Both the position numbers and the translations under genes were made by a program. From Acidobacteriota bacterium (GTDB taxonomy: Bacteria > Acidobacteriota > Blastocatellia > Pyrinomonadales > Pyrinomonadaceae): a stretch of 64,000 nt of DNA. Numbering within the stretch: position 1 is the stretch's first letter; every line of letters starts with the position of its first letter. Location of the stretch: the NCBI GenBank assembly GCA_031425495.1, contig JANPJL010000128.1:4184-68183 (forward strand), given 5' to 3'. The notes below the pieces were generated by a model that saw only the letters and a program-made list of their open reading frames with translations, did no database searches and was not told where the DNA came from. Shown here piece by piece: positions 3,302-24,583 of this stretch.

Positions 3302-3784
3302 ATGCAAAGAATTGGTTTCGGCACAGATATCCACAGACTAGTCAAAGGCCGACCGTTGATCCTCGGCGGCGTGGCAATCGAATCGGACCTCGGTGCCGAA
3401 GGGCATTCCGACGCCGATGCGTTGACTCATGCGATCACCGACGCGATCCTCGGTGCTTTGGCACTCGGCGATATCGGCTCGCATTTCCCAAACACGGACG
3501 AACGTTGGGCCAGCGCCGAGAGCTTTGTTTTTTTACGATTCGCTGTCGGGTTGATGAAACAGCACGGGTACCAGCTCGCCAACCTCGACTCGACCATCGA
3601 GCTCGAAAAACCTAAACTCCGTCCGTACATCGAGAAGATGGCCGAAGAATTATCCATCGTCCTGGAGATCGAACCGTCGCTTATCAGCATCAAAGCAAAA
3701 ACAGGCGAAGGAGTCGACGCCGTTGGAGAGAGCCGAGCAGTGCGTGCGAATGCTGTTGTCCTCTTGCATAAAGCGCAGAGATAA
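3302..3784 (+). CDS. ispF: 2-C-methyl-D-erythritol 2,4-cyclodiphosphate synthase
   Basis: RIGFGTDIHRL...GHSDADALTHAITDAILGA...GDIGSHFP motifs. Confidence 0.93.
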   Translation: MQRIGFGTDIHRLVKGRPLILGGVAIESDLGAEGHSDADALTHAITDAILGALALGDIGSHFPNTDERWASAESFVFLRFAVGLMKQHGYQLANLDSTIELEKPKLRPYIEKMAEELSIVLEIEPSLISIKAKTGEGVDAVGESRAVRANAVVLLHKAQR

Positions 3785-3788
3785 GATG

Positions 3789-4143
3789 CTAAACCGCTGA
3801 TCCTACGAAGATCAAAAGAACACCGCACGGATCCCATATGTGCATTATTGGAGTATCTCCGACCATCTCAGGTGCAGCGATCTTGGCATGGTCGAAGTTG
3901 CCATTTTCAACAATCGGCTTGGCGAAGTCATACCATTCCTTAACACTCGAAACGTCAAACTTCATCATGAAATTTTCAGCCCAGTCTTTGTTGTAGTAGT
4001 TCTGAAGCCGGAACTTAGCGCTTCCTAAAGAACAATCCGTAGAATCGCCCCATCCTTCGACCTGATCAAATCCTAAGGCCGCATAGAACCTTTTACAGTT
4101 TCATAGTTTTGAGAGGGAACGTAAGTTACCAGTTCATTGATGG
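3789..4143 (-). pseudogene. possible decayed small gene (glyoxalase/VOC-like C-terminus?) broken by stop and frameshift
   Basis: The minus strand reads ...INELVTYVPSQNYETVKGSMRP-stop. After a frame change it reads FDQVEGWGDSTDCSLGSAKFRLQNYYNKDWAENFMMKFDVSSVKEWYDFAKPIVENGNFDHAKIAAPEMVGDTPIMHIWDPCGVLLIF. The family assignment is weak. Confidence 0.25.
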
Positions 4144-4186
4144 TCAGCATGGAAGTATTATCGAGTAACTTCTGAATTTAAGATAA

Positions 4187-4295
4187 TTCTTGTTCGTGTT
4201 CTTTTTCGCGTGTTTCGTGCATTTCGTGGTTGGGTTTGAGAAAAGATAACCGCGAAATACACGAAAAAGACACGAAACAACAAACCTACCGCCAT
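4187..4295 (+). repeat. CACGAAA-type hairpin element (copy 1 of a dispersed family)
   Basis: The left arm has TTCGTG-type units, the loop is GGTTGGGTTTGAGAAAAGATAACC, and the right arm is CGCGAAATACACGAAAAAGACACGAAACAACAA. Confidence 0.8.
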
Positions 4296-4305
4296 TCAGT
4301 AGTGC

Positions 4306-4421
4306 TTCACTTTGAAAAACGGCTGATTCTTGTTCCGTCCTTTCCGTGCAATCGGTGGTTTCCGCCTGCAAGATGACCACAGAATACACGGAGCAACACG
4401 GAGAAAACACGGAATAAGAAA
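4306..4421 (-). repeat. CACGGAA-type hairpin element (copy 2, inverted relative to the copy at 51075)
   Basis: The reverse complement of the loop, GGTCATCTTGCAGGCGGAAACC, matches the loop at 51117-51138. The tail CACTTTGAAAAACGGCTGAT is the reverse complement of the ATCAGC..TTT..AAAG.TG tail of other copies. Confidence 0.8.
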
Positions 4422-4510
4422 GGTATTGCACTGCGTAGCCTATGCACTCCACGCGCGTGCATGGACTTTGAGTTTCGCCATGTGCGAAACTTTGGCCAGT
4501 CAGACACGAG

Positions 4511-5830
4511 ATGCGGCCACAAGAGATAATCGAAAAAAAACGAGACGGATCAGAGCTCTCCTCGGAGGAGATTGCGCTGTTTATTAACGGTGTATGCGAC
4601 GGCACATGGGCGGATTACCAGACATCGGCGCTGCTAATGGCGATGTTCATTCGCGGCCTGAGTGAAGCCGAGGGCGAGACGTTGACTCGCGAGATGCTTT
4701 ATTCGGGTGACGTCCTCGACTTCTCCGACATCGATATGCCAAAGGCCGACAAACATTCGACCGGAGGGGTAGGTGATAAGACGTCGCTGCTGATCGCTCC
4801 GATCGTAGCTGCATGCGGCGTCGCCGTTCCGATGGTCTCGGGGCGCGGCCTGGGTCATACGGGCGGGACCCTCGATAAACTCGAATCTATTCCGGGCTAC
4901 AATGTGAATCTTTCGACGGGCGAGTTTCGAAAGATCGTGAAGAGCTGCGGGTTCGCGATGTCAGGCCAGACCGATCAGATCGCACCCGCCGACCGGAAAC
5001 TCTACGCGCTACGAGACGCAACCGCGACCGTTCCATACATACCGTTGATCGTCGCTTCGATCATGTCGAAGAAGCTCGCCGAAGGTTTGGATGCACTGGT
5101 GCTTGACGTAAAGACTGGCTCGGGAGCATTCATGCAAAGTCTCGATGATTCGCGAACGCTGTCGAATGCTCTTGTTCGGACCGGTGATGGGTTCGGTCTA
5201 AAAGCGCAGGCGATCGTTTCGGACATGAACCAGCCACTTGGACAGTTTGTCGGTAACGCGCACGAAATCTACGAGTGCATCCAGATCTTGCGCGGCGAAG
5301 CCGGTGAAAATGCGAGAGGAACTTCCGAGTTATCTGTAGATCTGTCGGCACGAATGCTTTTGCTTTCGGGCATTGCCGATTCGATCGAATCCGCGCGGTC
5401 GCTGGTTGAATCTAAGATCTCGAGCGGCGAGGCGTTGGAAAGGCTGCGGGAAAATATCGAACGCCAAGGCGGTGACCCCGCCGTTTGTGACAGTCCCGCG
5501 ATGCTGATTGCCCCGGGCATTCACAAGGTTGAGCTGAAAGCCCCGCGGCCCGGTTATGTGTCTGCGATCGACACACTCTCGATCGGCAACACCCTGTCTG
5601 AGATCGGGGGCGGACGCGTTAAAGCCAGCGACGATATTGACCACGCGATCGGCTATGAGTGCGTCGCGCTGCTAGGCCACAAGGTCGCAGAAGGAGATAC
5701 GCTCGGTGTTTTGTTTACGCGTGACGGCCTCCGGTCCGGACTCGCAGTCTCTAAGATTACAGGTGCCTATCGGATCGACGACAATGCCGTGACCCCCCCG
5801 CCGCTTATTCATGATGTGATTTCTATTTGA
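4511..5830 (+). CDS. deoA: thymidine / pyrimidine-nucleoside phosphorylase
   Basis: KRDG..LS.EEI..FI; DKHSTGGVGDKTSL; SGRGLGHTGGTLDKLESIPG motifs. Confidence 0.9.
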   Translation: MRPQEIIEKKRDGSELSSEEIALFINGVCDGTWADYQTSALLMAMFIRGLSEAEGETLTREMLYSGDVLDFSDIDMPKADKHSTGGVGDKTSLLIAPIVAACGVAVPMVSGRGLGHTGGTLDKLESIPGYNVNLSTGEFRKIVKSCGFAMSGQTDQIAPADRKLYALRDATATVPYIPLIVASIMSKKLAEGLDALVLDVKTGSGAFMQSLDDSRTLSNALVRTGDGFGLKAQAIVSDMNQPLGQFVGNAHEIYECIQILRGEAGENARGTSELSVDLSARMLLLSGIADSIESARSLVESKISSGEALERLRENIERQGGDPAVCDSPAMLIAPGIHKVELKAPRPGYVSAIDTLSIGNTLSEIGGGRVKASDDIDHAIGYECVALLGHKVAEGDTLGVLFTRDGLRSGLAVSKITGAYRIDDNAVTPPPLIHDVISI

Positions 5831-10385: not shown

Positions 10386-13300
10386 CTACGGCGTGAACGC
10401 CGAGGGTACAGGTTTATCAGTGGCGATACCCCATTGCGATCCGAGGGTCATGCACGGGCAGCTGCTGAATATCCACCAGCGACCATCGCTCGGACGGAAA
10501 ATGGATAGGTCGGCTTTTCCGTCGTTGTCGTAATCCGCGGGAGCTGGAACGTCACCGTTCACACCCCACCTGTCTTGCCGTACCTGACCGTTGCTGCTTT
10601 GTAGTATCCACCAAACTCCGGTTGAAGGCCTCCAGATCGCAATGTCATCCTTGCCGTCGCCGTCATAGTCAGCCGGCACGATCTTGTCACCCGCTACTCC
10701 AAAGACCTGCACAACGCTTCCGCCCGTGCTTCTCAGAATGTGGAATGACAAAGTCGACGGGCGATAAACGGCCAGATCGGTAAGGCCGTCACCATCGTAA
10801 TCTGCCGGGACCGGGAGATCGGTCGAGACTCCCCAGCTCCTGATCTCAGTGCCACCGGTGCTCCTCGCTATCCACCATCTACCGGTCGACGGACGGAACA
10901 CGGCGTGGTCGGCTCTGTTGTCGGCGTCGTAGCGTCCGGGAACCGGAATGTCGCCGCTTGCTCCCCACGAAAAGGCGTCATAGTTTGTTGCCGGGTTGAG
11001 ACTCGTATACCAGACACCCGTACTCGGACGATAGACCGCGAAGTTCGCTGTTCCATCACCGTTGTAGTCGGCCGTTACGATGCGGTCTTCGCCGACGCCA
11101 AACTGCGGCGTCTGTGCCGTCGAGTCGGAACTTCGGAGGACAAACCACGTACTCGGGTCGGACGGGGTTGCACCGGCACGGTAGACCGAGATGTCGGCCT
11201 TTCGGTCGCCATCGAAGTCAAAGTCAGCTACAGCAGTCGGTGCCGCCGTCACGGTTATCGTGAAGTTCTTTACCGACATGGCTCCGCAACTGTCTGTCGC
11301 GGTCACGGTTACGGTATGCGGCGAGCCTGCGATCGGGCCGGAGTTGGACGCCGTGATCACGCCTGACATCGGATCGACGGAAATCGTACCGGTAAACGTA
11401 GCCGATGTCGCCGTGACGTTTGCAAGCGGTTGGTTGTCGGCGGGCACTGCGTCCGGAGCGATCGTCAGTTTACAGCTTGTTACGATCGTCTGGTTTGCGT
11501 AGTTGCCGAGAGTGGGTGCGGGATTCGCCTGGACGTTGATCACGAGATTCGCATCCTGCGCAAGGCCCTTGGCATCAGTAGCCCGCAGCACGATCGTGTT
11601 GTTTCCGATCGTTGCGTTGCAGAGTGCTCGTACACTGGCCGCGATCGAACCGTTTGTGTTGACGATGCCAGTAACCTGCATTCCGGTCGGAACCGTTTGC
11701 GCGATCACGGTCACAGCACCCGGTGCCGATACGTCGTCGGACACGGTCGCGACAACGGAGTTGCTTGCCGGATTACCCTGAATGCGGGTCAAACCCGCCG
11801 TCGGGGTGATGATCGGCGGACCGGTTATCACCTGCGGATTCCCGGTCAGATTACCGGTCGATGTGTTGAAGTTCGTATCTCCACTATAGACCGCTGAGAT
11901 CGTATGACTGCCCGGTGTGAGAGCGTTCGTCATACACGCTGCGGCGTTAGCCGTGAGCGTCACCGCTGTGCAGCCCGTGATAGGCGTGACACCGTCGCGG
12001 AACTGGACGGTGCCGGACCGTGTTCCCGCACCCGGGGGCGTTACGCTGACCGCGGCAGTGAATGTAATTGTCGTGCCCTGCGGTGCAGGATTCTGCGACG
12101 ACGTTAGTGCTACGGTGGTGTTCGCTTTGTTCACCACCTGAGGGTTGCCGGTCATCGTGCCGATTGATGTGTTGAAGCTTGCATCACCGGAATACGTCGT
12201 CGTGATCGTGTGACTTCCGACGATAAGAGCACTCGTCTGACACGTCGCCTGGGCTGATGCCAATGCAACATTCTGACAGCCCACGATCCCCACTCCGCCA
12301 TCCAGGAAGTTGATCGTTCCGGTCGGCGAACCGGTTCCTGGTAGAACCGGAGCGACAGTTGCCGTGAACGTTACTTGCTGTCCGAAGACTGAAGGATTCT
12401 GAGACGAGGTAAGACCCGTCGTGGTGTTCGCCTTACCGACGACTTGTCCGCCGGCCAGGGTTCCGATGTTGGCGTTGTAGCCCGTCACTCCGCTTCCACC
12501 GCCGCTGTATTCAGCAGTGATAACCCGGGTACCGACAGCAAGCGTCGAGACGCTCACCTGTGCCGTGCTGACATTGTCACCCACGGTTCCAACAACAACT
12601 GCCACCGGAGAACCAATGTTTGTACCGTCCGCCTTGAACTGAACAGTTCCCGGCGGGTCGCTAGCTCGAGAAGGTACGCCTGTCATTGTCGCCGTGAAGG
12701 TGACACTCTGCCCGAAGGTGGTTGGGTTTAGGTTCGACACCACCGCGACGGTTGTGTGATCGATGTTCGTCACGGTCGGATTTGCCGAGCCCGCGACATC
12801 CGGATCGTCGGTCTGGACGGTCGGGAAATTACCCGAGACCGAGCCCTGATTCGAAACCGTTGTGAAGGCCGGCAATGTGTTGCCAATCACCGCGCGGAAT
12901 ATGATAGTCGTCGATTTCCCAGTCGGAATTACAAAGCCGGTCCCGCTGCCATTGACGGTGATCGTCTCACCGCTTTCCGGCTGCGCGTTTGTCTCGTCGG
13001 ACGTTGTCTCCTGAGAATGGGCTGTCGGCGAAATTGCCGAGCCGAGCTTGCTTACGAGTTCGGTGAGGAATGCCGTCACCGTAGAAGATTGCTCCGCAGT
13101 CGGAGAAGACTCTCTCGTTGCTTTTCCTTCGTAGGCCTTTGCATTAGCCACCTGCTTTTCCAAGACCGCCAGGTCAAAGCTTTCGAAGGCCGGCTGATAC
13201 GAAGCGTTTGCAAATACCAAGCTGTTTACAAACTGCACCGCCGCGGATATTTCGGCATTCGACGGCCTTTCGTCCCGAGTCGCAGGTGACTTGAGGAACG

Positions 13301-16300
13301 GTATATCGATCTCTTCATCGATCAACGGATTTGTGTTTATCTGTACGCCCGATGGTTCATTCTCCTGCGGGACGCTCTGGAAGAAATGGGAATTCAGATC
13401 GTCACCAACCTGCGGTCCGAATGGTGCGGAAGAGCAGTTGCTGTATCCGCTGGTTGCGGAGATCTGCAGAACGCCGTTCACGCTGCCGTCGCCTATGCCG
13501 TTTGCCGAACCGGGATTCAGACCCGCGCCGTTGCCAACGTATTGTTCGACGCCCGGGCTGCTAGTTGCCGCCATCCCTTCAATACCAAAATCGTTCGTGG
13601 TCGCGACGGTACCTTGCTTACGCAACCCGATACCGGCGGTGCTGCTGCTTCCGGACGTTGTGTTAGCTCGTAGGTCAAGACAAACGGCGTCGTCCGAGCC
13701 GGCCGCGGTATTCCCCGCATCTACCCGAATACCCGGGCGGAATCCTGACAAAGGTGCAGAGACCGAATTGTTTCGGATCCCAAGTTTCGCGATCGCACCC
13801 GTACCGTTTCCACGACCGACGAGGAGAATGCCGTTACCGTCTGTTTGGCTAATAGTGTTATTGGTGGCCGTGAGAGTTAGATCGGGAGTTTCGCAACGTC
13901 CCGCTGCGCATCCGATCACGACACCGTTTCCACCACCGATACCGTTTGCGGCGAGCCCCGCAACCTGATGATTGGCGACGATAGTATTGTTATCGACGAC
14001 CGCGGTCATATCCGAAAACCCGTTATTGCCGATACCGATGACCGTCCCGGTGAGATTTGTGAGCGGTCCGGATGCGAGGCAGCCTCCGCCGAATCTTCCG
14101 TTACAGGATATGTTCGCGTTTCCGCGAGAGCGCTGTCCGGAGTTACCGCCGCCGATCACAAAAAGGATGGCGCTCGTGTTCATTCGGTTTGCGGCACTCT
14201 GTCCCTGGATGGTGTTGCTGACGATGTTAATAATGTTGGTGGGATTACCGGGAGTTCCGGCTTCACCGCGTGGACCGGTCGAGTTTGTGTTGCCGTAATT
14301 AACCTGAATGCCGCCGCCGCCGGGAAAGTTCGTGATCGTGTTGTTGTTGATCGTCGCCTTCGTGAGGTTCGCTGCAGTGGTCGTATTGCCTATCCCGACT
14401 AATTTTATTCCGTCTCCGAGAGATGTCGCCGCCGATGTCGTGCTGGTGAAAGTGTTGCCGGTAATCACGGCGTCGCTGATCGTTCCGGCATCATTTTCAA
14501 GATAAATTCCACTATCACGAGCGTTCGTCAGCGTGCTTCCGGTTACCGTCAGCGTGCCGTTGATATTATTTCCTGACAGGCTACCAGTACCGTTGAACGC
14601 GATGTTGGATTCCGTAACGGCATCGCCCGAATTATTTATTGTTCCGTTTGTGAAGCTGAAGTTGTTGACGGATAGAACGCCATTGATACCGCTCCCGGCC
14701 GTGGTCTGAATATTCAGCTGGTCAAGGAATATATTCTGGACATTCGATAGCGAGATTCCGTCGCCGGTCGTGTTCTGTATCGTGCCGCCCGAGCTGTTAT
14801 TTGTACTCCCAGAATCGCCGACGATTCGGAATCCGCCCGGGCTCCCGGACGAAGTAGCGTTCGCTAATATGATCCCGCTCGCCGCACCTGTTGCCGACAC
14901 GCTGGTCCACTGCATATTCAGCGGAGTCATGACCACCGCACTTGTTCCAACGACCTGTACAGCGGTTGCAGTGCCGGTGCTGGGAATGGTCCCGCTTGTG
15001 GTCGTTATCGCACCGACGGACTGGTCCGTTGCGAAAAACGCTCGGATATTCGCATCGGGCGAGATGTCGAGATCAAGGAAGCTTACGGATCCGGTATTGT
15101 CGTCCAGAAAGACGCCGATCGCACCGCACTGCGTGGCGGTTACGTTTTGGAAGGTGACGGCTGTCGTCGAGTCCTGAATGTTTATGCAATTGACGGCTGG
15201 ATTGGTGAAGGTCGCGGTGCCGTTGACCGTTGTCAGACCGCCGCCCACAGCATGAACGAATCCAGTTCCGCTTCCGTTTGTAGTCGAGAGAGTTCCGAAC
15301 GATCGCGTTCCGGCAGAGTTGTTCTGCAGTGAAACGCCATCGGTACCGCCCGTGATCGCGGTGTTGCCAAAGCTTATGTTCCCGGTACTCGTGCCGACGA
15401 GGATGCCCTGGGTCGTCGCGCCGATCGTAGTCGAGGTTCCGAAGTTGGCAGCGACGGCTGAACTGGAGATAGAAATCCCCTGCGTGCCCGCACCCGAAAT
15501 CGACGTGGTGGTAGACACTGTCAGAGTGCCGCCGATTGTCGACAAGTTGATGCCGGGTCCGCCCGGAGCGCTTGTCGCCACTAGGCTGTCGAAGGTCGCG
15601 GTGATCGTGCCGCTTGCTAGGTCCAAGAGGCGACCCGTTCCCGAAAGATCCATCTCAGAGATCGCGAGCGTTCCGACGCTTGCGCCGGCGATGTCGATTC
15701 CGGTCGTGTTGCCGATATTAAATCCACGCAACGTATTTCCCGAGGCTGCGTTCACACCGTTCGTCGAAGCAGCGGTCGTTGTGATCGCTGGGCGTGAGCC
15801 GCCCGTAGCCGGTAGGGCATCGCTCCCCGTCGGGGGAGTTAAACCAGTGATCGTGGATAGCGATGCTGTCGCACCCTGCCCGATCAATCGCTGACCCGCG
15901 AGCAACGTAACGCCGCCGGTGTAGCTGCCACTAAATAGAAAAATATTATCGCTCGTTCCATCCGCCGCGACCGGATCAAAACAGCCGGCACCGACCAGAC
16001 AGTTGAAAGGCGAACTCAAGCGCCCGTCACCACCGCCAGCCGCGCTCGCGTTGACGAACCAGATCATCCCACTCACATTGAACGTAACGGTTCCGGTACC
16101 GGTGGCTCCACCTGTATCGGTTACCGTATATGTAAAGGTATCCGTACCCTCGAAACCCGGTGCCGGGTTATAGACAAAGCTGCCGTTGGCGCTCATCGTG
16201 ACGTTTCCGCCGTTGACGCTCGTCGCACCGGCACTTGCGGTCAGACCTGCGTTGGTCCCGGTGTTCGGATCGACGTCGTTCGCAAGCACGCCGCTTCCGA

Positions 16301-16685
16301 CTGGTATTGTGATCCGAACATTCCCGGTCGCCGTGTAAGAGTCGTTGGAAGCGATCGGAGAAGCGTTGACAGAGCCTGCAACCAGCGTCAGCGAGTTCGG
16401 TAATGTGTCCGTGAAGATCGTGTTCAAAGCCGGATCAGGGCCGGTGTTGTTGATCGTCACGGTGTACTGGAGAGTGTCACCCGGATCGGCCCGACCGTCG
16501 CCGTCGACATCCGTAAAAAGCGCATCGACCTTAGTCGCAGATATCGTTGGGACAATCCCTAGGGAATCATCATTCTCAAAGGCGCTCGATATAAAAGTCC
16601 CCCAAAGAACTCCGATCGAAACAGCTACGGAAATAGCGAGAGTTAACGCCAGGCGAATGGTCCTGCGGCTTAATGGGATCGACAT
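10386..16685 (-). CDS. giant (2099 aa) membrane-anchored/secreted surface protein: DUF11-like, cadherin/VCBS-like, long parallel beta-helix region, Ig-like repeats, C-terminal FG-GAP/VCBS propeller
   Basis: N-terminal anchor RLALTLAISVAVSIGVLWGTFI. DGDGRADPGDTLQYTVTINNTGPD. ANDVDPNTG...FTYTVTDTGG. About 900 aa of G/T/N/S-rich beta-helix-like repeats. Several Ig-like repeats (at least three share FGQSVTFTATM / FGQQVTFTATV / QGTTITFTAAV). Six blades of DYDGDG..D.A.YRPS.G.WW. Confidence 0.85.
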   Translation of the reverse strand: MSIPLSRRTIRLALTLAISVAVSIGVLWGTFISSAFENDDSLGIVPTISATKVDALFTDVDGDGRADPGDTLQYTVTINNTGPDPALNTIFTDTLPNSLTLVAGSVNASPIASNDSYTATGNVRITIPVGSGVLANDVDPNTGTNAGLTASAGATSVNGGNVTMSANGSFVYNPAPGFEGTDTFTYTVTDTGGATGTGTVTFNVSGMIWFVNASAAGGGDGRLSSPFNCLVGAGCFDPVAADGTSDNIFLFSGSYTGGVTLLAGQRLIGQGATASLSTITGLTPPTGSDALPATGGSRPAITTTAASTNGVNAASGNTLRGFNIGNTTGIDIAGASVGTLAISEMDLSGTGRLLDLASGTITATFDSLVATSAPGGPGINLSTIGGTLTVSTTTSISGAGTQGISISSSAVAANFGTSTTIGATTQGILVGTSTGNISFGNTAITGGTDGVSLQNNSAGTRSFGTLSTTNGSGTGFVHAVGGGLTTVNGTATFTNPAVNCINIQDSTTAVTFQNVTATQCGAIGVFLDDNTGSVSFLDLDISPDANIRAFFATDQSVGAITTTSGTIPSTGTATAVQVVGTSAVVMTPLNMQWTSVSATGAASGIILANATSSGSPGGFRIVGDSGSTNNSSGGTIQNTTGDGISLSNVQNIFLDQLNIQTTAGSGINGVLSVNNFSFTNGTINNSGDAVTESNIAFNGTGSLSGNNINGTLTVTGSTLTNARDSGIYLENDAGTISDAVITGNTFTSTTSAATSLGDGIKLVGIGNTTTAANLTKATINNNTITNFPGGGGIQVNYGNTNSTGPRGEAGTPGNPTNIINIVSNTIQGQSAANRMNTSAILFVIGGGNSGQRSRGNANISCNGRFGGGCLASGPLTNLTGTVIGIGNNGFSDMTAVVDNNTIVANHQVAGLAANGIGGGNGVVIGCAAGRCETPDLTLTATNNTISQTDGNGILLVGRGNGTGAIAKLGIRNNSVSAPLSGFRPGIRVDAGNTAAGSDDAVCLDLRANTTSGSSSTAGIGLRKQGTVATTNDFGIEGMAATSSPGVEQYVGNGAGLNPGSANGIGDGSVNGVLQISATSGYSNCSSAPFGPQVGDDLNSHFFQSVPQENEPSGVQINTNPLIDEEIDIPFLKSPATRDERPSNAEISAAVQFVNSLVFANASYQPAFESFDLAVLEKQVANAKAYEGKATRESSPTAEQSSTVTAFLTELVSKLGSAISPTAHSQETTSDETNAQPESGETITVNGSGTGFVIPTGKSTTIIFRAVIGNTLPAFTTVSNQGSVSGNFPTVQTDDPDVAGSANPTVTNIDHTTVAVVSNLNPTTFGQSVTFTATMTGVPSRASDPPGTVQFKADGTNIGSPVAVVVGTVGDNVSTAQVSVSTLAVGTRVITAEYSGGGSGVTGYNANIGTLAGGQVVGKANTTTGLTSSQNPSVFGQQVTFTATVAPVLPGTGSPTGTINFLDGGVGIVGCQNVALASAQATCQTSALIVGSHTITTTYSGDASFNTSIGTMTGNPQVVNKANTTVALTSSQNPAPQGTTITFTAAVSVTPPGAGTRSGTVQFRDGVTPITGCTAVTLTANAAACMTNALTPGSHTISAVYSGDTNFNTSTGNLTGNPQVITGPPIITPTAGLTRIQGNPASNSVVATVSDDVSAPGAVTVIAQTVPTGMQVTGIVNTNGSIAASVRALCNATIGNNTIVLRATDAKGLAQDANLVINVQANPAPTLGNYANQTIVTSCKLTIAPDAVPADNQPLANVTATSATFTGTISVDPMSGVITASNSGPIAGSPHTVTVTATDSCGAMSVKNFTITVTAAPTAVADFDFDGDRKADISVYRAGATPSDPSTWFVLRSSDSTAQTPQFGVGEDRIVTADYNGDGTANFAVYRPSTGVWYTSLNPATNYDAFSWGASGDIPVPGRYDADNRADHAVFRPSTGRWWIARSTGGTEIRSWGVSTDLPVPADYDGDGLTDLAVYRPSTLSFHILRSTGGSVVQVFGVAGDKIVPADYDGDGKDDIAIWRPSTGVWWILQSSNGQVRQDRWGVNGDVPAPADYDNDGKADLSIFRPSDGRWWIFSSCPCMTLGSQWGIATDKPVPSAFTP

Positions 16686-16775
16686 ATTTTTTTAACCTCG
16701 GTCTCGACGGGTCGGTGAACGAAATGCAATCTTGAATAATTCCACTTCTGCGTACAGAAAGTTGTGAGTTCGCAG

Positions 16776-17297
16776 CTAACTGCGGGGCGGAAAAACGCCC
16801 TGCAATGCGATACAAAAGTTTAGCGTCAGGTACGGCATCATGTTGTTATGCGGAAGACTGCCTCCCGCGGGAACTAAAGCGTTCGGGCTGAGTTGTGTCA
16901 GTGGTCCGCCGGCCGGGCCATACGCGCCAATGCCGACGCCCGTCGCCAGTCTTTCATTTACGGGACTTTGACTGATGCCGTCCGCGACCGAAGCGCTAAC
17001 GGCGTGCGAATGCGCGGGTATCTCGGACTGCAAAAGCGTTACGAAGTCCGAGCCACCGATTTCACCTAAGTCGTGCAATGACAGGCCGGGCCCTTGACCC
17101 CAAAACATCGGGACGCTTCCTTGCAAATTCGGAAGGGCAAAAGTCGACTGGCCGTTGCCGCCGTACGTCGTCCCTAGAAGCGAAAAGAGTGCGGTGTTCT
17201 GCGAAATCGGCAAGATCTGCCCGTCACACAGCGCCCATCCAGTGGGTGCAAAGTTGAAAGGAAAAATTCTTATCTCAGCTACAAATGGACTCGCCAT
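16776..17297 (-). CDS. phage tail collar domain protein (MdpB-like), paralog 3
   Basis: MASPFVAEIRIFPFNFAPTGWALCDGQILPISQNTALFSLLGTTYGGNGQSTFALPNL ... GGSLPHNNMMPYLTLNFCIALQGVFP. This is the Collar-domain signature. Confidence 0.85.
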   Translation of the reverse strand: MASPFVAEIRIFPFNFAPTGWALCDGQILPISQNTALFSLLGTTYGGNGQSTFALPNLQGSVPMFWGQGPGLSLHDLGEIGGSDFVTLLQSEIPAHSHAVSASVADGISQSPVNERLATGVGIGAYGPAGGPLTQLSPNALVPAGGSLPHNNMMPYLTLNFCIALQGVFPPRS

Positions 17298-17363
17298 AAA
17301 CTATCTCCTGAGGGGCCACCATAGGGTAAAAATTCGAACTGCTTCGACCGGGAGAGCGTCCCT

Positions 17364-17876
17364 CTAGTTCGGCGGTGGAAAGATCCCGAACAATGAAATG
17401 ATAAAACTAACGCACAGGTACGGTTGAAAATTGGTGTGTGGCTGACTGCCTCCGACCGGTGTGACCATAGTCGGACTCAACGTGGTGGAGGGATTGTCAC
17501 TTCCGTACGGCGTGATGGTCGCAAGGCTGGTTGTCGCCACCGTTGCTCCGCCGCTAGGCGCTGTTGATGAAGCAGGGTTTGTCGTCGCGAGCATCGGATG
17601 GCTGTGAGCCGGGATTTGGTTCACGGTCAGTGTGACCTGTTCGGCACCACCGGTTTCCGCAAGGATGAAGCCGTTGCCTTGATGGATCGGGACACGCCCG
17701 CGCAGATCGGGCAAGGCAAAGGTTGATTGACCATCTCCGCCATACGTCGTGCCTATCAGATTGAATAACGTCTCGTTCTCACTGATCGGCAAAAGCTGCC
17801 CCTGGCAGAACATCCATCCCGCCGGCGCAAAGTTCCCGCCGAATAGTCTGATCTCTCCTACAAACGGTTGTCCCAT
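17364..17876 (-). CDS. phage tail collar domain protein (MdpB-like), paralog 2
   Basis: MGQPFVGEIRLFGGNFAPAGWMFCQGQLLPISENETLFNLIGTTYGGDGQSTFALPDL ... GGSQPHTNFQPYLCVSFIISLFGIFP. Confidence 0.85.
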   Translation of the reverse strand: MGQPFVGEIRLFGGNFAPAGWMFCQGQLLPISENETLFNLIGTTYGGDGQSTFALPDLRGRVPIHQGNGFILAETGGAEQVTLTVNQIPAHSHPMLATTNPASSTAPSGGATVATTSLATITPYGSDNPSTTLSPTMVTPVGGSQPHTNFQPYLCVSFIISLFGIFPPPN

Positions 17877-17888
17877 TAGTTCAGCTCC

Positions 17889-18395
17889 TTAATTCCGGCT
17901 CGGGAAAATTCCCTGAAGCGCGATGCAAAAACTCAGTGCCAGAAACGGCTGCATGTTGAGATGGGCTTGGCTGCCCCCGACATTCCCGATGGCGCTGGGT
18001 GCCATCGGCTGCAGATTCGACGCGGCGGCATAAAGATTCGCTCCCGTCGATTGAGCTAGAAGCAGGCCGTTCCCCGGCGTATTTGTCGTCGCCGGAGCAG
18101 TCGTGGCGTTGGCGAGATGAACATGCGTTGGCATCTCGGACTGCGTGATAGTGTGTGCCTGCTCGCCGCCCAACTCTCCGAGAGTGTGACCGTTGCCGGT
18201 ATGTATCGGAGTTCGCGCCCGAAGGTCCGGCAACGCGAAATTGGTCTGCCCGTTGCCGCCGTAGGTTGTACCGAGGAGCGAAAAAAGCGCCTGGTTCTGA
18301 TTGATCGGCAGCAGCTGTCCGTTACAAAACGCCCAACCGCGCGGGGCATATCCGAAACTGAAAATTCTTATCTCGGACAAAAATGGTTCGGCCAT
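17889..18395 (-). CDS. phage tail collar domain protein (MdpB-like), paralog 1
   Basis: MAEPFLSEIRIFSFGYAPRGWAFCNGQLLPINQNQALFSLLGTTYGGNGQTNFALPDL ... GGSQAHLNMQPFLALSFCIALQGIFP. Confidence 0.85.
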   Translation of the reverse strand: MAEPFLSEIRIFSFGYAPRGWAFCNGQLLPINQNQALFSLLGTTYGGNGQTNFALPDLRARTPIHTGNGHTLGELGGEQAHTITQSEMPTHVHLANATTAPATTNTPGNGLLLAQSTGANLYAAASNLQPMAPSAIGNVGGSQAHLNMQPFLALSFCIALQGIFPSRN

Positions 18396-18653
18396 GAGAG
18401 GTCCTCCGATTTCTCGATCGATTTATGAAACCTGCTTGTATATAAGAAGTGCGGGGTGAATTAAGAAAGGCGGCAAACCGAAAAATAAGGAAGCATTCCG
18501 CCTTCGACAACATTTCGTCGTCTTTGATAACGTGCGATTCTAAGCTTTTGGGCGCCTGCCGTCAAGGGATTACGGCTTCGGAGCGTGATACTGCGATCGG
18601 GCGGTGAGCGCAGGATTCATCATCTGTCGTAGGTGGCAGAGATTGGCGGTCGT

Positions 18654-18956
18654 CTAATTTTGCTCGACGAAACGATTAAATACCGCCTCGTAGTACATGG
18701 ATCCGGCGTCCTTTCTTACGGGTACGAGAAAGATCAGGACGTCTCCGAGCTTTTCATGCTTCATCTCGTAGGTCATTTGCTGAAGGGATGGTTGTAGTGG
18801 TCCGCGGAACAGAATCGAGAACTGCTCTTGTTTTGGTGTCGATCCGAGGTCGTTGCATTCGATCAATTCCAGCTCAACAGTCTCGGCATCGCTTACGCTC
18901 ACGAGGAAATGGGTGTTTAGGTTTTCGCGTAAAAGACTTTCCGAGATCTCGTGCAT
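18654..18956 (-). CDS. small cytoplasmic protein (100 aa), paralog of the 19564 gene product
   Basis: Start at MHEISESLL avoids overlap with the GNAT gene. The C-terminus ...LIFLVPVRKDAGSMYYEAVFNRFVEQN matches ...VLMAPVRESRKSSQLCYEAVINRMI of the neighbour. Confidence 0.6.
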   Translation of the reverse strand: MHEISESLLRENLNTHFLVSVSDAETVELELIECNDLGSTPKQEQFSILFRGPLQPSLQQMTYEMKHEKLGDVLIFLVPVRKDAGSMYYEAVFNRFVEQN

Positions 18957-18993
18957 ATCTGGATCTAATCTTAGCCTCACCCGCCGAACCGGT

Positions 18994-19461
18994 CTAGCGA
19001 GCGTCGCACTCCAGCAGAAAATATCCGCCGTGTTCTTCAATTGTGGTGAAGCCGAGACGCGAGTAAAGCTCCTTGGCAGGATTAAGGGTAGCGACATGCA
19101 AGCGAACGGGTTTGCCTGCTTGGCTCGCCGATTCGAGCAACTGTCGGATCACGATTGTTCCGATTCCTTTTCCTTGAGATACCGGCATGATCGCGATATC
19201 GATAAGGCGAAACTCTTCCGCTAATTCTGCGACAAGCAACCTGCCGATCACCTCGTCATCAAGCAAAATGACCGAATCTCGAGCTGCTGGAAACTGTGCT
19301 TTGTAACTCTGCTGCCTCGCGTTGTACTGCATTCGAAGAAACGCGTCTACCTGCTCTGCGCTCCAACCCCAACCCGCCATCTCGTCCCTTCGCGTCTCGC
19401 GATAGAGCTCGAACAAAAAGTCGGTATCGGATCCAGCCAAATCATGCAGAACGACATTCAT
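18994..19461 (-). CDS. GNAT family N-acetyltransferase
   Basis: LIDIAIMPVSQGKGIGTIVIRQLL...ELYSRLGF is an acetyl-CoA binding motif. The start at MNVVLHDL (19461) is preferred over the 19560 extension. Confidence 0.75.
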   Translation of the reverse strand: MNVVLHDLAGSDTDFLFELYRETRRDEMAGWGWSAEQVDAFLRMQYNARQQSYKAQFPAARDSVILLDDEVIGRLLVAELAEEFRLIDIAIMPVSQGKGIGTIVIRQLLESASQAGKPVRLHVATLNPAKELYSRLGFTTIEEHGGYFLLECDAR

Positions 19462-19563
19462 AACAAGAAAATGTTGCAACCATCGGGAATCAAAGCTAAA
19501 CTTACGACGACTTTTCGGTTCGCCTGTCAAAATCATTGTAACGACAATCGAGGTACTCAAAAA

Positions 19564-20013
19564 ATGAAGATCACAAGACGGAAGTTCTTGAAATCCGGCT
19601 CGTCTGCCGCCGCCCTTGGCACCGGTGCCATTCTTTTCCCACAGATCGCTTCAGGACAGCTTGCCGTAAAAGGCTCTCGCAGTCTCGGTTGGGATTCTTT
19701 CAATGCAATCTCTAGTTTTAGCAAAGCCGATTTCGAGGCTCAGGTCGGTACCGAGTTCAATCTGCTATCGCCGGCACACGGCAATCGCGCCGTTACACTG
19801 GTCGGTGTTGCCGGATCTTCGGCAGGAAAAGAAGAAGTCACCGAGAGCTACTCGCTGGTGTTTAAAGGAACTGAATGGCAGGACGTGAATCAGGACCTTT
19901 ACCTTGTCACTCATCCGACTCTCGGCGATTTCAATGTACTAATGGCTCCAGTCCGCGAAAGCAGGAAAAGCTCTCAGTTATGCTATGAAGCGGTCATCAA
20001 CCGCATGATCTGA
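19564..20013 (+). CDS. Tat-signal small secreted protein, paralog of the 18654 gene product
   Basis: MKITRRKFLKSGSSAAALGTGAIL is a twin-arginine signal. The mature part aligns with the 100-aa neighbour (F.L....VEL.L......F.L.F.G....Y....LG.F.....PV......YEAV.NR). Confidence 0.65.
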   Translation: MKITRRKFLKSGSSAAALGTGAILFPQIASGQLAVKGSRSLGWDSFNAISSFSKADFEAQVGTEFNLLSPAHGNRAVTLVGVAGSSAGKEEVTESYSLVFKGTEWQDVNQDLYLVTHPTLGDFNVLMAPVRESRKSSQLCYEAVINRMI

Positions 20014-20128: not shown

Positions 20129-21265
20129 ATGAGTACAGCAACAGAAAGTACGGCGGCAGCGGGACTTCGCGGGGTCGTTGCGGCACAGAGCGCGATCGGC
20201 GACGTTAACGGCGAAGAAGGGAAGTTAATTTACCAGGGTTACGATATTCACGATCTGGCGGAAAACTCGACCTTTGAAGAGGTCGTTTTTTTGCTTTGGA
20301 ACGGCCGTCTGCCTAATAAGGAGGAGCTCGATGAGCTGACCTCGCAGATTCGTGCGAACTACAAAGTGCCGGCCGAGATCATCGCCGGAATGAAGTATAT
20401 GCCGAAGGACGCCGATCCCATGGATGTCCTCCGCACTTGTGTTTCCGCTCTGGATTTCTACGACAAGGACGGGCACGGCACCGATCCCGAGAATGCGAAG
20501 AACTCGGCGATCAAGATCACCGGTCAGATCGGCACTATCGCGGCTGCGTGGGACAGAATTCGTAATGGCAAGGACCCGGTCACACCCGATGCTAACCTGT
20601 GCATCGCAGAAAATTTCCTCTACATGCTTCGCGGCGAGAAAGCGGATTCAGACGAGGCCCGGATGTTCGATATCGCGCTTATCCTTCACGCCGATCACGA
20701 ACTAAATGCATCGACGTTCACCACGCGTGTTGTCGCCGGAACGCTAGCTGACATGTATGGCGCGGTCACCGCCGGGATTGCCGCACTGGCAGGTCCGCTT
20801 CACGGCGGAGCAAACACCGCGGTGATGAAGATGTTGATCGAGATCGACGATCCGGCGAAGATCGACGCGTGGGTAGACGATGCACTCGCGAGCAAGAAAA
20901 AGATCATGGGTATCGGGCACGCGGTCTACAAGACGGAAGACCCACGGGCGACCTGGCTCAGGAAATTCTCGAAGCAGATGGCCGACAAGAAGGGCGAGGC
21001 GAAATGGTTCGACATGTCGCAGCGTATCGAGAAACTTATGCTCGAGAAGAAGGGAATGTTTCCGAACGTCGACTTCTATTCCGCGTCGACGTATTACCTG
21101 ATGGGAATCCCGCTGGACCTATACACCCCGATTTTCGCCGTGAGCCGCATTTCAGGCTGGACGGGTCACATTCTCGAACAGTACGCGAACAACAAGCTGA
21201 TTCGGCCGCGAGCCGAATACATCGGCGAGCGCGATCAGAAGTATGTCGCGATAGGCGAACGGTAA
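20129..21265 (+). CDS. gltA: citrate synthase (short, ~378 aa type)
   Basis: GLRGVVAAQSAIG...GKLIYQGYDIHDL; LILHADHELNASTF; GPLHGGAN; GIGHAVYKTEDPR. Confidence 0.9.
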   Translation: MSTATESTAAAGLRGVVAAQSAIGDVNGEEGKLIYQGYDIHDLAENSTFEEVVFLLWNGRLPNKEELDELTSQIRANYKVPAEIIAGMKYMPKDADPMDVLRTCVSALDFYDKDGHGTDPENAKNSAIKITGQIGTIAAAWDRIRNGKDPVTPDANLCIAENFLYMLRGEKADSDEARMFDIALILHADHELNASTFTTRVVAGTLADMYGAVTAGIAALAGPLHGGANTAVMKMLIEIDDPAKIDAWVDDALASKKKIMGIGHAVYKTEDPRATWLRKFSKQMADKKGEAKWFDMSQRIEKLMLEKKGMFPNVDFYSASTYYLMGIPLDLYTPIFAVSRISGWTGHILEQYANNKLIRPRAEYIGERDQKYVAIGER

Positions 21266-21313
21266 GTGGTAAGTGGTAAGCGGTAAGTGGTAAGTGGTGA
21301 GTGGTAAGTGTAA
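21261..21313. repeat. 7-nt tandem array GGTAAGT (~7 units)
   Basis: Read directly. The gltA TAA stop (21263-21265) is inside the first unit. Confidence 0.9.
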
Positions 21314-21314
21314 G

Positions 21315-21480: not shown

Positions 21481-22614
21481 ATGAGAATTTTCAAATTATC
21501 GACGGCGATCTTTTTAATCAGCCTATTTTTAATGGCATGTAATTCGGATGAGCAGCGTGGTGAGATTACGACGGCCGACCCTTACCCGAGAGAACCGGCG
21601 TTAGTCGAGCAGCAGCCGATAGATGACTATTGGGCGAAAGACAATCTTGATCTTGAGCGCGTAGGCAACTTACTTGAACGATCCGAGGATCCTGAAGAAT
21701 TCGAGAGATATCTAAACGACGACGACGGCATCAACAACCTCGACCTTAACGGCGACGGTTATGGCGACTATATCAGCGTGGAGGAATTTGGGGACAACGA
21801 TTCCAACTCGCGCGGGCTTTCGCTATTCTCGCGTTTTGGTCCGAATCTTATTCAGCAGATCGCGACTATTCTTTTACATCGGGATAGTCCGAATTATCCG
21901 GGTGCGCGTTTTCTGATCAACGGAAACGAGCAGCTTTACGGCGATAACAATTACTACGAGACGAACTGGCTAGACCGCAGCATTCCCCTCGTTTCAACGT
22001 TGTTCGGTAATCACACCCGATACAGCTCGCCCTACTACTACGACAATTATCCGAACGGCTACAATTCCTATCAGGTGGTTGATACGCCGGTCTATCGCAC
22101 GCGAATTGAGCAGCTCTATCCGCAGCCAGTATTCGTCTACACGACGAACCCGACATTTATCGACAAGGTAAAGATCAAGTCGCCGCACGAGGGCAAATGG
22201 ATAAATAACGTTTACGCTAAGCTCGCGAAACCGACGAAAGAGCAAGCTGAATTCCTGAAGAGCAATCCAGGACGCAAAAATCTTGCTATCGGCGACAAAC
22301 CGGGCCGCGTCGATCCGCCGCGGAGTGATCGAGGCGACGAGCGCGGTAATCCTGCGAGAGATGAACGTGGAGCGCAGCGCGGCAATCCGGATAAGCCTGT
22401 CGGCAATCCAAAAGACAATGGTCCCGGCGGAAAGCCGGAGAAGTTCGACAACCCGAACAAAGGCGGTGGCAATCCGAACAAAGGCGGTGATAAGCCGAAG
22501 ATGAGTGGCGGTAACCCTAACAAGGGCGGTGGCAATCCGAACTCGATGGGTGGTGGGAATCCGAACAAGGGCGGTGGTAACCCGAACAAGGGCGGTGGTA
22601 AAGGCAAACCCTAA
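21481..22614 (+). CDS. lipoprotein with acidic Ca-binding-like loop and basic GGNPNKGG-repeat tail
   Basis: Lipobox FLMAC. DDDDGINNLDLNGDGYGDYISVEEF is EF-hand/dockerin-like. The C-terminal ~100 aa are repeats of GGNPNKGG / GNP.K. Confidence 0.65.
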   Translation: MRIFKLSTAIFLISLFLMACNSDEQRGEITTADPYPREPALVEQQPIDDYWAKDNLDLERVGNLLERSEDPEEFERYLNDDDGINNLDLNGDGYGDYISVEEFGDNDSNSRGLSLFSRFGPNLIQQIATILLHRDSPNYPGARFLINGNEQLYGDNNYYETNWLDRSIPLVSTLFGNHTRYSSPYYYDNYPNGYNSYQVVDTPVYRTRIEQLYPQPVFVYTTNPTFIDKVKIKSPHEGKWINNVYAKLAKPTKEQAEFLKSNPGRKNLAIGDKPGRVDPPRSDRGDERGNPARDERGAQRGNPDKPVGNPKDNGPGGKPEKFDNPNKGGGNPNKGGDKPKMSGGNPNKGGGNPNSMGGGNPNKGGGNPNKGGGKGKP

Positions 22615-23155: not shown

Positions 23156-23668
23156 ATGTTTTGTCCAAAATGCGGATCGCAGAATTCGGATGATACGAAA
23201 TATTGCCGCGGGTGTGGCTCAGACTTGAGTAACGTGCTGTCGGTCGTCGAGCAGTCGTCCAACTCGGGAGCGCTCGGCGAAAAGCACCTGGAGCATGTTA
23301 GTTTGAGCGTTCGAGCTCTGACGCTCGCTCTCGGGTTGTTTATCGTCGCGGTCGTTGCGTATGCTCTTTCGCCAAAGCTCGCTGTGCTCGTGGTCTTTGC
23401 TCTTGCTTTCTCTTTCGTTTTTCTAGCCGTAGGAATTTCGCGTATTGTGCAAGCCAGCGGGATGAAACGTATTCGAGATATGAAGGCCGCTGAGCCGGCC
23501 AAGGTGCTTTCACCCGGGCAGGCCGATTACATCAAGCCTCCGCGTTCGATCTATCAAACTGACGATCTCACCACCACGCACCGGGCAAGCGTTACCGAGC
23601 ATACGACGAAGCACCTTGAGATCGAGGATAAGACCGGGGACTTCGGTCATATAAGAGGTGAGGAGTAG
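23156..23668 (+). CDS. zinc-ribbon membrane protein (paralog A)
   Basis: MFCPKCGSQNSDDTKYCRGCGSDL, two predicted TM helices, and the C-terminal motif SVTEHTTKHLE. Confidence 0.7.
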   Translation: MFCPKCGSQNSDDTKYCRGCGSDLSNVLSVVEQSSNSGALGEKHLEHVSLSVRALTLALGLFIVAVVAYALSPKLAVLVVFALAFSFVFLAVGISRIVQASGMKRIRDMKAAEPAKVLSPGQADYIKPPRSIYQTDDLTTTHRASVTEHTTKHLEIEDKTGDFGHIRGEE

Positions 23669-23859: not shown

Positions 23860-24050
23860 CAGTTGTCAGTGGTCGGTTGTCAGTTGTCAGTAAAGCGGAA
23901 TCGGGAAGCAGAAGGCGGAGGCGGAAGGCAGAAGGCAGAAGGCGGAAGGCGGAAGGCGGAAGGCGGAAGGCGGAAGGCAGAAGGCGGAAGGCGGAAGGCG
24001 GAAGGATGAAAGCCGACAACTGACAACTGACGACTGACAACCGACAACTA
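23860..24050. repeat. composite repeat: inverted GTTGTCA-unit arms enclosing a GGCGGAA 7-nt array (~15 units)
   Basis: The left arm at 23860-23890 (CAGTTGTCAGTGGTCGGTTGTCAGTTGTCAG) is near-complementary to 24012-24050. Between them lies GGCGGAA/GGCAGAA x ~15. Confidence 0.9.
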
Positions 24051-24055
24051 ACATT

Positions 24056-24583
24056 ATGTTTTGTCCTCATTGCGGTCAGGAACGAATTTCCGAGGCGACG
24101 AGCTTTTGCTCGCGGTGCGGTTACTTATTGACGGGAACTGCGGCATTGCTTCGGACCGGCGGGGTGCCTCCGCAAACGCCGACCGGCGGACCGCGTTCGC
24201 CACGTTCGCGGGGAGTGCGGATGGGAACATTCATGTTCCTACTGATGTTTGTCCTCGCGCCCATCGTGGGTTTGATCTCCGTATTTGGATTGCGTATCGA
24301 ACCGTGGCCGGTCGGTCTGGTTATAGCACTTTGCGGGTTTGGCGGATTGCTCCGAATAATCTACGCCCTGATGTTCGAATCGAAAATTTCGATAGCCGGG
24401 CCAAGCTCTGCTCGCGAAATCGATCCGGCGCTGGCCGGTTTTACTACTTCGGCGCTACCTCCGCAGCGAGAGATCCCTGCCCCCGAATACGTCTCCCCTC
24501 GTCCCGGCACATGGCGCGAGCCCGAAGTCCGCACACCCGCCACCGTTACCGACCACACAACGAAACTTCTCGATAAAGAATAA
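24056..24583 (+). CDS. zinc-ribbon membrane protein (paralog B)
   Basis: MFCPHCGQERISEATSFCSRCGYLL, two TM helices, and the C-terminal motif TVTDHTTKLLDKE. Confidence 0.7.
   Translation: MFCPHCGQERISEATSFCSRCGYLLTGTAALLRTGGVPPQTPTGGPRSPRSRGVRMGTFMFLLMFVLAPIVGLISVFGLRIEPWPVGLVIALCGFGGLLRIIYALMFESKISIAGPSSAREIDPALAGFTTSALPPQREIPAPEYVSPRPGTWREPEVRTPATVTDHTTKLLDKE

Follow-up and report, generated by a model that had tools for sequence, protein, structure and literature searches.

Gene organisation of the locus

The window analysed here is a 64,000-nucleotide (nt) stretch of an Acidobacteriota genome (GCA_031425495.1, contig JANPJL010000128.1, positions 4,184 to 68,183 of the forward strand), and our subject is a cluster in it of three tandem genes for short proteins with the Collar domain of phage tail fibres, termed A, B and C below, which adjoins the gene for a giant exported protein. 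A preliminary description of this DNA had drawn attention to the three genes and to N- and C-terminal motifs common to their products, and had placed the giant gene 90 bp downstream on the same strand; open reading frames (ORFs) found at these positions and the shared motifs bear this out. The cluster and the genes upstream of it comprise the following (aa, amino acids; Tat, twin-arginine translocation):

17889..18395, minus strand: Collar-tip subunit A, 168 aa (ORF with Pfam Collar match)
17364..17876, minus strand: Collar-tip subunit B, 170 aa (ORF with Pfam Collar match)
16776..17297, minus strand: Collar-tip subunit C, 173 aa (ORF with Pfam Collar match)
10386..16685, minus strand: giant exported protein, 2099 aa (ORF with Pfam and NCBIfam domains)
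18654..18959, minus strand: short DUF6916 protein without signal peptide, 101 aa (Pfam DUF6916, E = 9e-25)
18994..19560, minus strand: GNAT-family acetyltransferase, 188-aa ORF whose true start may lie further downstream (Pfam Acetyltransf_1/7/10)
19567..20013, plus strand, divergent from the operon: Tat-signal DUF6916 protein, 148 aa (Pfam DUF6916, E = 7e-16)

The intergenic gaps measure 12 bp (A/B), 66 bp (B/C) and 90 bp (C/giant), a GGAGG-like (Shine-Dalgarno-like) ribosome-binding site lies ahead of each of A, B, C and the giant gene, and the three Collar genes are all in one common reading frame. Between C and the giant gene, the minus strand shows no terminator-like site. Upstream of A, on the same strand, follow the short DUF6916 gene, listed as an ORF at 18654-19097 with its probable start at the ATG at 18959, and then the GNAT gene, with the divergent Tat-type DUF6916 gene beyond.

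The Collar subunits and their kinship to phage fibre tips

The Collar assignment, made earlier from motifs, was confirmed by searches with the hidden Markov model of Pfam Collar (PF07484), which all three proteins match at E = 3e-28 to 4e-29 (A 2.7e-28, B 3.6e-29, C 3.1e-28), over residues 7/8-63 (8-63 in A) and with 97.9-100.9 bits against a gathering cutoff of 24. Pairwise identity among A, B and C is 50-54%. Their centre, although the most divergent part, is not fully diverged as had been supposed: a P-x-H-x-H motif and a few further central positions are invariant in all three. The HxH pair is H91/H93 in A (nt 18117-18125), H91/H93 in B (nt 17598-17606) and H96/H98 in C (nt 17004-17012). 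Subunit A carries the C-terminal strand motif GGSQAHLNMQPFL, and C alone has a GQGPGLS insertion.

Sequence matches in the PDB are exclusively phage tail fibres, and all three proteins match PHROG tail (tail-fibre) families. The alignment of B to the phage fibres 8kec and 9qgo passes through the HxH pair, and in 8kec it extends to the C-terminal end, which is aligned with the motif GGSQxHxNxQP(Y/F)L. Homologs from phages reach no more than 40% identity, with one or two copies in each phage genome. As the Collar domain is preceded by just 6-7 residues, the proteins are tips without shafts, and the fibre tip envisaged in the preliminary description is better termed a knob. B has more than 8000 homologs, the best 120 listed being 76-89% identical, and its close relatives bear the source names 'microcystin-dependent protein' or 'tail fiber protein'. 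An AlphaFold2 (AF2) model of the B monomer, built from a 62-sequence alignment, reached a predicted local distance difference test score (pLDDT) of 45.8 and a predicted template modelling score (pTM) of 0.22; such low confidence would be the outcome expected of an obligately intertwined oligomer, although it is not proof of one.

A reduced form of the domain was noticed on large viral contigs of IMG/VR (L095-L100, L102 and L103; for example L095 8004-8237), which encode 'mini-Collar' proteins of 77-81 aa. In most of these, the first ~59 residues of the Collar domain pass straight into a C-terminal strand of ~13 residues, with neither HxH nor a variable head.

A fixed set of three genes across bacteria

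A scan of one genome per species returned at least 589 relatives, from which the best 80 loci were taken (60-77% identity). They belong to Acidobacteriota, Chloroflexota, Pseudomonadota, Verrucomicrobiota, Bacteroidota, Actinomycetota and Gemmatimonadota. In all loci not cut by a contig end the number of Collar genes is 3, 6 or 9, never 1, 2 or 4. Position-specific orthology to A, B and C of the window holds in 73 of 73 clean triplets from seven phyla, in the same fixed order, with a mean identity of 68-71% at the same position and 47-52% to the other positions. The A-B-C order recurs on megaplasmids of Aminobacter and Deinococcus. Within each ortholog group the first ~95 residues (Collar and HxH) and the last ~35 are highly conserved, and ~55 central residues are variable even among orthologs. 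There are 26 alignment columns conserved within A, within B and within C, yet different among the three, which is the pattern expected of three specialised subunits with a common scaffold and variable loops. On these comparisons, the trio is an ancient, fixed A-B-C set.

Some arrangements depart from this order or repeat it. Two triplets in tandem on the IMG/VR viral contig L090 (5693-8909) match the paralogs of the window best in the order B-A-C instead of A-B-C, which agrees with the module order of natural B-A fusions (see below), and the distant triplets of viral contigs L091-L093 have no clear correspondence to A, B and C. At locus L063, from a metagenome-assembled genome (MAG), two complete A-B-C triplets (3404-4970 and 10805-12371) agree at every one of 1567 nt (100% identity) but have different flanks, and the two adjoining giants are just 48% identical. 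Locus L019 has the same pattern, with 14 differences in 1548 nt. Both cases may reflect gene conversion or an artefact of MAG assembly.

Chains with several modules and natural fusions

A profile search of 1.84 billion cluster representatives gave 59,404 relatives (clusters at 50% identity). Among the top 150 representatives, 59 single chains hold two modules, 85 hold three, four hold six, one holds nine and one holds eleven; no chain with 4, 5, 7 or 8 modules was seen in this set. Counts of 3, 6 and 9 in single chains would point, indirectly, to a threefold unit. The most compact are P0325, P0326, P0330 and P0335 (507-511 aa), with three tip modules, very short linkers and one HxH in each module. 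Two-module fusions with Gly/Ser linkers occur in both orders: a B-type module leads and an A-type or A/C-like one follows in P0001, P0242 and P0337, and P0347 runs from A to B. When the modules of distant single chains were assigned to A, B or C by BLAST, their orders came out mixed, and these assignments are unreliable.

Circular permutation is seen in many single chains, in which the C-terminal GGxQPHxNxQPSL strand lies ahead of the first module, an arrangement that fits a closed three-part ring. Among the secreted triple-Collar proteins, P0344, P0346, P0356, P0357 and others run from a signal peptide through a GGxQPHxNxQPSLxLNYII strand to the first Collar domain. In P0379, P0350, P0377, P0358 and P0343, one polypeptide combines three Collar modules with arrays of Big_9, Cadherin, He_PIG, Calx-beta, immunoglobulin (Ig)-like and FG-GAP domains, the same domain types as in the giant protein of the window. 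These fusions of a triple Collar to adhesin-like arrays argue that knob and stalk work together.

A conserved module with a giant protein, GNAT and DUF6916

The preliminary description had proposed that the trio and the giant protein belong together, and this association is conserved across phyla in 52 of 58 loci. Partners were counted in the 58 loci that extend 3 kb or more to either side of the trio:

Giant ORF (1000 aa or longer, same strand, no more than 1.5 kb from the trio): 52 of 58 loci (upstream of A in 31, downstream of C in 23, in both places in 2)
GNAT homolog within 5 kb of the trio: 55 of 58 loci
DUF6916 within 5 kb of the trio: 52 of 58 loci
Giant, GNAT and DUF6916 together: 46 of 58 loci

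All-against-all clustering of the ORFs of 84 loci returned Collar, GNAT, DUF6916 and giant proteins as the only recurring families. A neighbourhood that is not conserved had been named at the outset as a finding that would refute the proposed system, and these counts do not bear that out. The set was incomplete, since GNAT, DUF6916 and, often, a Tat-signal protein had been missed. The same set occurs in cultured bacteria, namely on pSR1 of Aminobacter sp. SR38, pDFI2 of Deinococcus ficus, the megaplasmid of Ruegeria sp. TM1040 (TM1040_RS01845-RS01875) and a plasmid of Comamonas antarctica, where the label given to the trio by the Prokaryotic Genome Annotation Pipeline is 'tail fiber protein'; the megaplasmids of cultured bacteria that bear the module are without virus genes. 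Gene content thus points to a module that is non-viral and is kept together in at least eight phyla. We found no paper describing this bacterial module in the literature searched.

Transcriptional data from Acaryochloris marina may concern the same module. AM1_3684 (conserved hypothetical), AM1_3686 (acetyltransferase), AM1_3687 (hypothetical) and AM1_3688-3690 ('phage tail collar') are among the genes most strongly co-induced in low far-red light (PMC11633204), and the cluster AM1_3684-3690 is here equated with the module by annotation only. On pDFI2 of D. ficus (L088 9894-18480) the module adjoins a polysaccharide gene cluster, with genes for an acyltransferase, a beta-helix protein, glycosyltransferases of families GT2 and GT4, an O-antigen ligase and a flippase.

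The giant protein is built, in order, of a signal peptide or anchor, DUF11, Big_9/Cadherin-like domains, a conserved Gly/Thr/Asn-rich region of ~900 aa, three Big_3_5 domains and FG-GAP repeats. Its N-terminal ~1100 aa are common to the giants that adjoin the trio elsewhere, with a peak of conservation at residues 100-350, and the C-terminal ~1000 aa of the giants are variable. Nearly all homologous giants begin with a Sec-type signal peptide, so that the supposed N-terminal anchor is more likely a cleaved signal peptide, and the description of the protein as a beta-helix finds no backing in a family match at E <= 0.01 in Pfam or NCBIfam. No toxin domain was found in the same databases.

DUF6916 occurs in two forms: among the 73 loci that have it, the short signal-less protein is present in 72 and the Tat-signal form in 29. 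The AF2 model of the short protein (pLDDT 91.5) has one helix and six strands. A role for DUF6916 as a fibre-assembly chaperone was considered and found no support, there being no significant Foldseek match in the PDB or a viral library. No DUF6916-Collar fusion was seen among the 150 representatives. The GNAT protein gave generic Pfam family matches only.

Location and export

The Tat-type DUF6916 protein of the window (19567-20013) has a canonical twin-arginine N-terminus, MKITRRKFLKSG, within the signal MKITRRKFLKSGSSAAALGTGAILF, and a weak TAT_signal match. Where the giant gene precedes the trio, C is often followed directly by a gene for a Tat-signal protein (200-285 aa), for which hhalign gave no relation to DUF6916; in Deinococcus this position is taken by a homolog of periplasmic binding proteins. 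Tat-signal ORFs are about three times as frequent within 3 kb of triplets (48/1314) as beyond 4 kb (18/1680). Among single-chain relatives, Sec signals are found on many three-module proteins (P0321 and P0324, for example) and Tat signals on some with two or three modules (P0382, P0395 and P0447). As in Tat 'hitchhiker' export, a twin-arginine partner (19567-20013) is here co-encoded with the signal-less A, B and C. It is speculation that a folded, metal-bound knob is exported by riding on such a partner; hitchhiking of this kind would account for the signal-less trio, its signal-bearing relatives and the nearby Tat ORFs.

A Collar-domain protein has been detected in the exoproteome of Ruegeria pomeroyi (PMC4949626).

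A probable heterotrimeric knob and the alternatives to it

With moderate confidence, we favour the explanation that the trio forms a heterotrimeric knob in a non-viral module, and that this knob leaves the cytoplasm to serve, together with the giant protein, in recognition or adhesion at the cell surface. A, B and C would be three different subunits of one knob of ~55 kDa, whose architecture resembles the receptor-binding tip of T4-type phage fibres with no fibre shaft. It would have a Collar base, variable distal loops and a conserved C-terminal strand returning to the base, and the HxH pairs, one per chain, are predicted to form a six-histidine metal site on the axis. The knob would fold in the cytoplasm and then be exported, possibly on the Tat-signal partner. 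Once exported, knob and giant protein would form a ligand-recognition or adhesion device at the cell surface. The heterotrimer idea and the link to the giant are well supported by the comparative evidence: a 1:1:1 assembly, as first suggested for these proteins, is strongly favoured by the A-B-C orthology, by the fusions of two and three modules and by a virophage precedent (PMC12724248). What the sequences show directly is the kinship to phage fibre tips, the A-B-C orthology, the conserved module and the fused forms; 1:1:1 assembly, export, partnership with the giant and the binding of a ligand or metal are inferred, as are the roles first proposed, an adhesin or a contact-dependent module.

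We consider unlikely, taken as a whole, a more elaborate form of this explanation, namely a phage-derived surface apparatus in which a metal-centred, lectin-like knob of three subunits is carried by Tat, on a DUF6916-type or other Tat-signal partner, and docks on the conserved N-terminal half of the giant, with GNAT and the short DUF6916 protein as assembly or modification factors. The roles given there to GNAT and DUF6916 are speculative, as is hitchhiking.

Several observations weigh against a surface-exposed heterotrimeric knob. A, B and C lack a signal peptide, and the GNAT and short DUF6916 proteins look cytoplasmic. Of the 58 well-flanked loci, at least 33 had a Tat-signal partner (only ~57%, a lower bound obtained with a crude motif). 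Six of the 58 loci have no adjacent giant, and in some genomes the giant gene is on the opposite strand. The large proteins fused to Collar modules gave no phmmer match to the giant of the window at E <= 1e-5. Foldseek found nothing significant for the DUF6916 model in the PDB (best Psb28, E = 0.06, template modelling (TM) score ~0.4) or in a viral library. The case for heterotrimer assembly, moreover, is put together from comparative evidence and a distant viral precedent.

Some of these observations would suit a knob that stays in the cytoplasm and acts with GNAT and the short DUF6916 protein, for instance in a complex with a metal-binding, modifying or chaperone function by which the giant is made ready for export. 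The most constant partners of the signal-less trio are themselves signal-less (GNAT in 55 of 58 loci, short DUF6916 in 52 of 58), and ~40% of loci are without a detected Tat-signal partner. We nevertheless regard this explanation as quite unlikely, as Sec and Tat signal peptides are frequent on single-chain relatives, other relatives are fused to extracellular Ig-like or cadherin arrays, characterised homologs are all extracellular receptor binders, and one Collar-domain protein belongs to the Ruegeria exoproteome mentioned above.

The three genes might also be merely co-expressed paralogs whose products assemble independently into homotrimers, giving three knobs that each have a specificity of their own. 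The phage Collar tips of T4 gp12 and gp37, among others, are homotrimeric, and all three paralogs have the full scaffold motifs and an HxH pair, so that each could in principle trimerise alone. Independent homotrimers would leave without explanation why three genes keep a fixed order in 73 of 73 loci and come in multiples of three, why 3, 6 or 9 different modules share single chains, why two-module fusions exist as both B-A and A-B, and why positions are conserved within a subunit type and differ between types. The virophage trio, in addition, was found biochemically to be a heterotrimer (PMC12724248), and separate homotrimers appear to us very unlikely.

We give little credence to an antagonistic or defence system, such as a lectin-like bacteriocin or a contact-dependent weapon with GNAT and DUF6916 as immunity or modification factors. 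The variable C-terminal halves of the giants recall polymorphic toxins, A, B and C likewise vary in their central loops, and Collar paralogs of Solibacter have been reported to be under positive selection (PMC3174227). Against this, the giant has no detected toxin domain, its variable parts and those of its homologs are binding-type domains (Ig-like, FG-GAP or PD40), and the GNAT and DUF6916 genes are often convergent with the operon, unlike toxin-immunity pairs. PADLOC models gave no match among seven proteins of the locus, and a known defence system was rejected on that ground.

Least probable of all, in our judgement, is that the trio is the fibre tip of a tailocin, contractile injection system or prophage encoded elsewhere in the genome, its adjacency to the giant being incidental, because, although its PHROG and PDB matches are all tail fibres and the Acaryochloris cluster is induced together with tail sheath and baseplate genes (AM1_0267-0278 and AM1_6403-6406, in the same low far-red light; PMC11633204), a possible sign of some connection with contractile injection systems, the proteins lack both a shaft and an attachment region, the distant phage homologs do not form this trio, the partners are specific and conserved, and no phage-tail gene is found among the scanned ORFs of the window or is conserved within 10 kb of the trio across 84 loci. 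The earlier statement that no phage genes lie nearby was thus upheld: Pfam scans of the window ORFs at ~1.3-34 kb returned no sheath, tube, baseplate, capsid, terminase or integrase gene. A prophage as the source of the trio was rejected, since phage genes were neither present in these scans nor recurrent across the 84 loci.

Flanking genes and repeats

The flanks of the module consist of housekeeping genes (thymidine phosphorylase, VWA protein, Bmp-type ABC transporter, citrate synthase, sulfatase, IspD/IspF and CofD). One candidate promoter was noted upstream of the trio:

18537..18565, minus strand: sigma-70-like promoter match TTGACG-17-TAGAAT, ~140 bp upstream of A (weak evidence)

Matches of this type are no more numerous in the region than in shuffled sequence. 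Right after the citrate synthase gene is a 7-bp tandem repeat (GGTAAGT x7.9; 21261-21314). The plus-strand gene at 21481-22614 encodes a 377-aa protein with a lipoprotein-like N-terminus (…FLMAC), no Pfam match and a C-terminal tail of GGNPNKGG repeats, which corresponds to a 21-nt DNA repeat at 22450-22601. Further on, two adjoining paralogs (23156-23668 and 24056-24583, both plus strand) have an N-terminal zinc ribbon, membrane segments and a common C-terminal motif, V(T/S)(E/D)HTTK(H/L)L; between these two genes, at 23860-24053, lie the repeats CAGTTGT x4.6, GAAGGCG x13.7 and GACAACT x5.6.

Implications

Collar-only 'tail fiber' or 'microcystin-dependent' proteins are very common in bacterial genomes and soil metagenomes, occur in soil metaproteomes and are routinely annotated as phage genes. 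The present analysis offers a first testable framework for this family, in which the proteins of one major branch would form a knob of three fixed subunits, linked in at least eight phyla to GNAT, DUF6916 and an exported giant, and in which three modules have repeatedly been fused, in nature, into secreted chains and adhesin-like proteins. DUF6916 gains a context, and trio genes should not be counted as prophage markers. Tractable carriers of the module include Ruegeria sp. TM1040, Aminobacter, Mesorhizobium, Deinococcus ficus and Acaryochloris marina. If the knob is indeed carried by Tat and docked on the giant, the apparatus would be a surface organelle of a class not described before, and an abundant one in soil bacteria.

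Comparison with known systems

The trio shares with the tips of the T4 gp12/gp37 type (1ocy, 5iv5, 8kec and 9qgo) the Collar domain, the HxH pair, a predicted metal motif, and the C-terminal QP(Y/F)L strand motif. The phage tips, however, are homotrimers that end long, baseplate-attached shafts, whereas the trio of the window is made up of three short chains that differ from one another and lack a shaft, and no virion genes were found with it.

Small Collar-only proteins with no signal peptide and no prophage context are also known as the COG4675 'microcystin-dependent protein' and as RhiB of the Rhizobium rhiABC genes, which carries a Collar domain (PMC13133039). The rhiABCD cluster, as described there, differs in having one Collar gene, together with RhiA, RhiC and quorum-sensing control. 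The single-chain triple-Collar proteins (P0321, P0325, P0379 and others) have the same module in threes, but as one polypeptide with a signal peptide and not as four genes.

The closest parallel is found in the virophage DSLV2, in which three consecutive PF07484 proteins co-purify as a heterotrimer of ~55 kDa with 1:1:1 composition, a Collar base and a variable head; the complex is seen as short fibres by electron microscopy, binds Synechococcus cells (by enzyme-linked immunosorbent assay) and their lipopolysaccharide, and its Collar phylogeny is position-specific (PMC12724248; J Virol 2025). A heterotrimer of Collar proteins, as suggested in the preliminary description, is therefore not without precedent. 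Compared by description, both systems have three consecutive Collar genes on the same strand, of similar size and with position-specific orthology. The DSLV2 trio adjoins capsid genes and is part of the virion, whereas that of the window is chromosomal, and lies amid housekeeping genes with a giant, GNAT and DUF6916. With the heterotrimer already known in virophages, what is new here is a bacterial form of the Collar-type receptor-binding tip and its conserved genomic setting.

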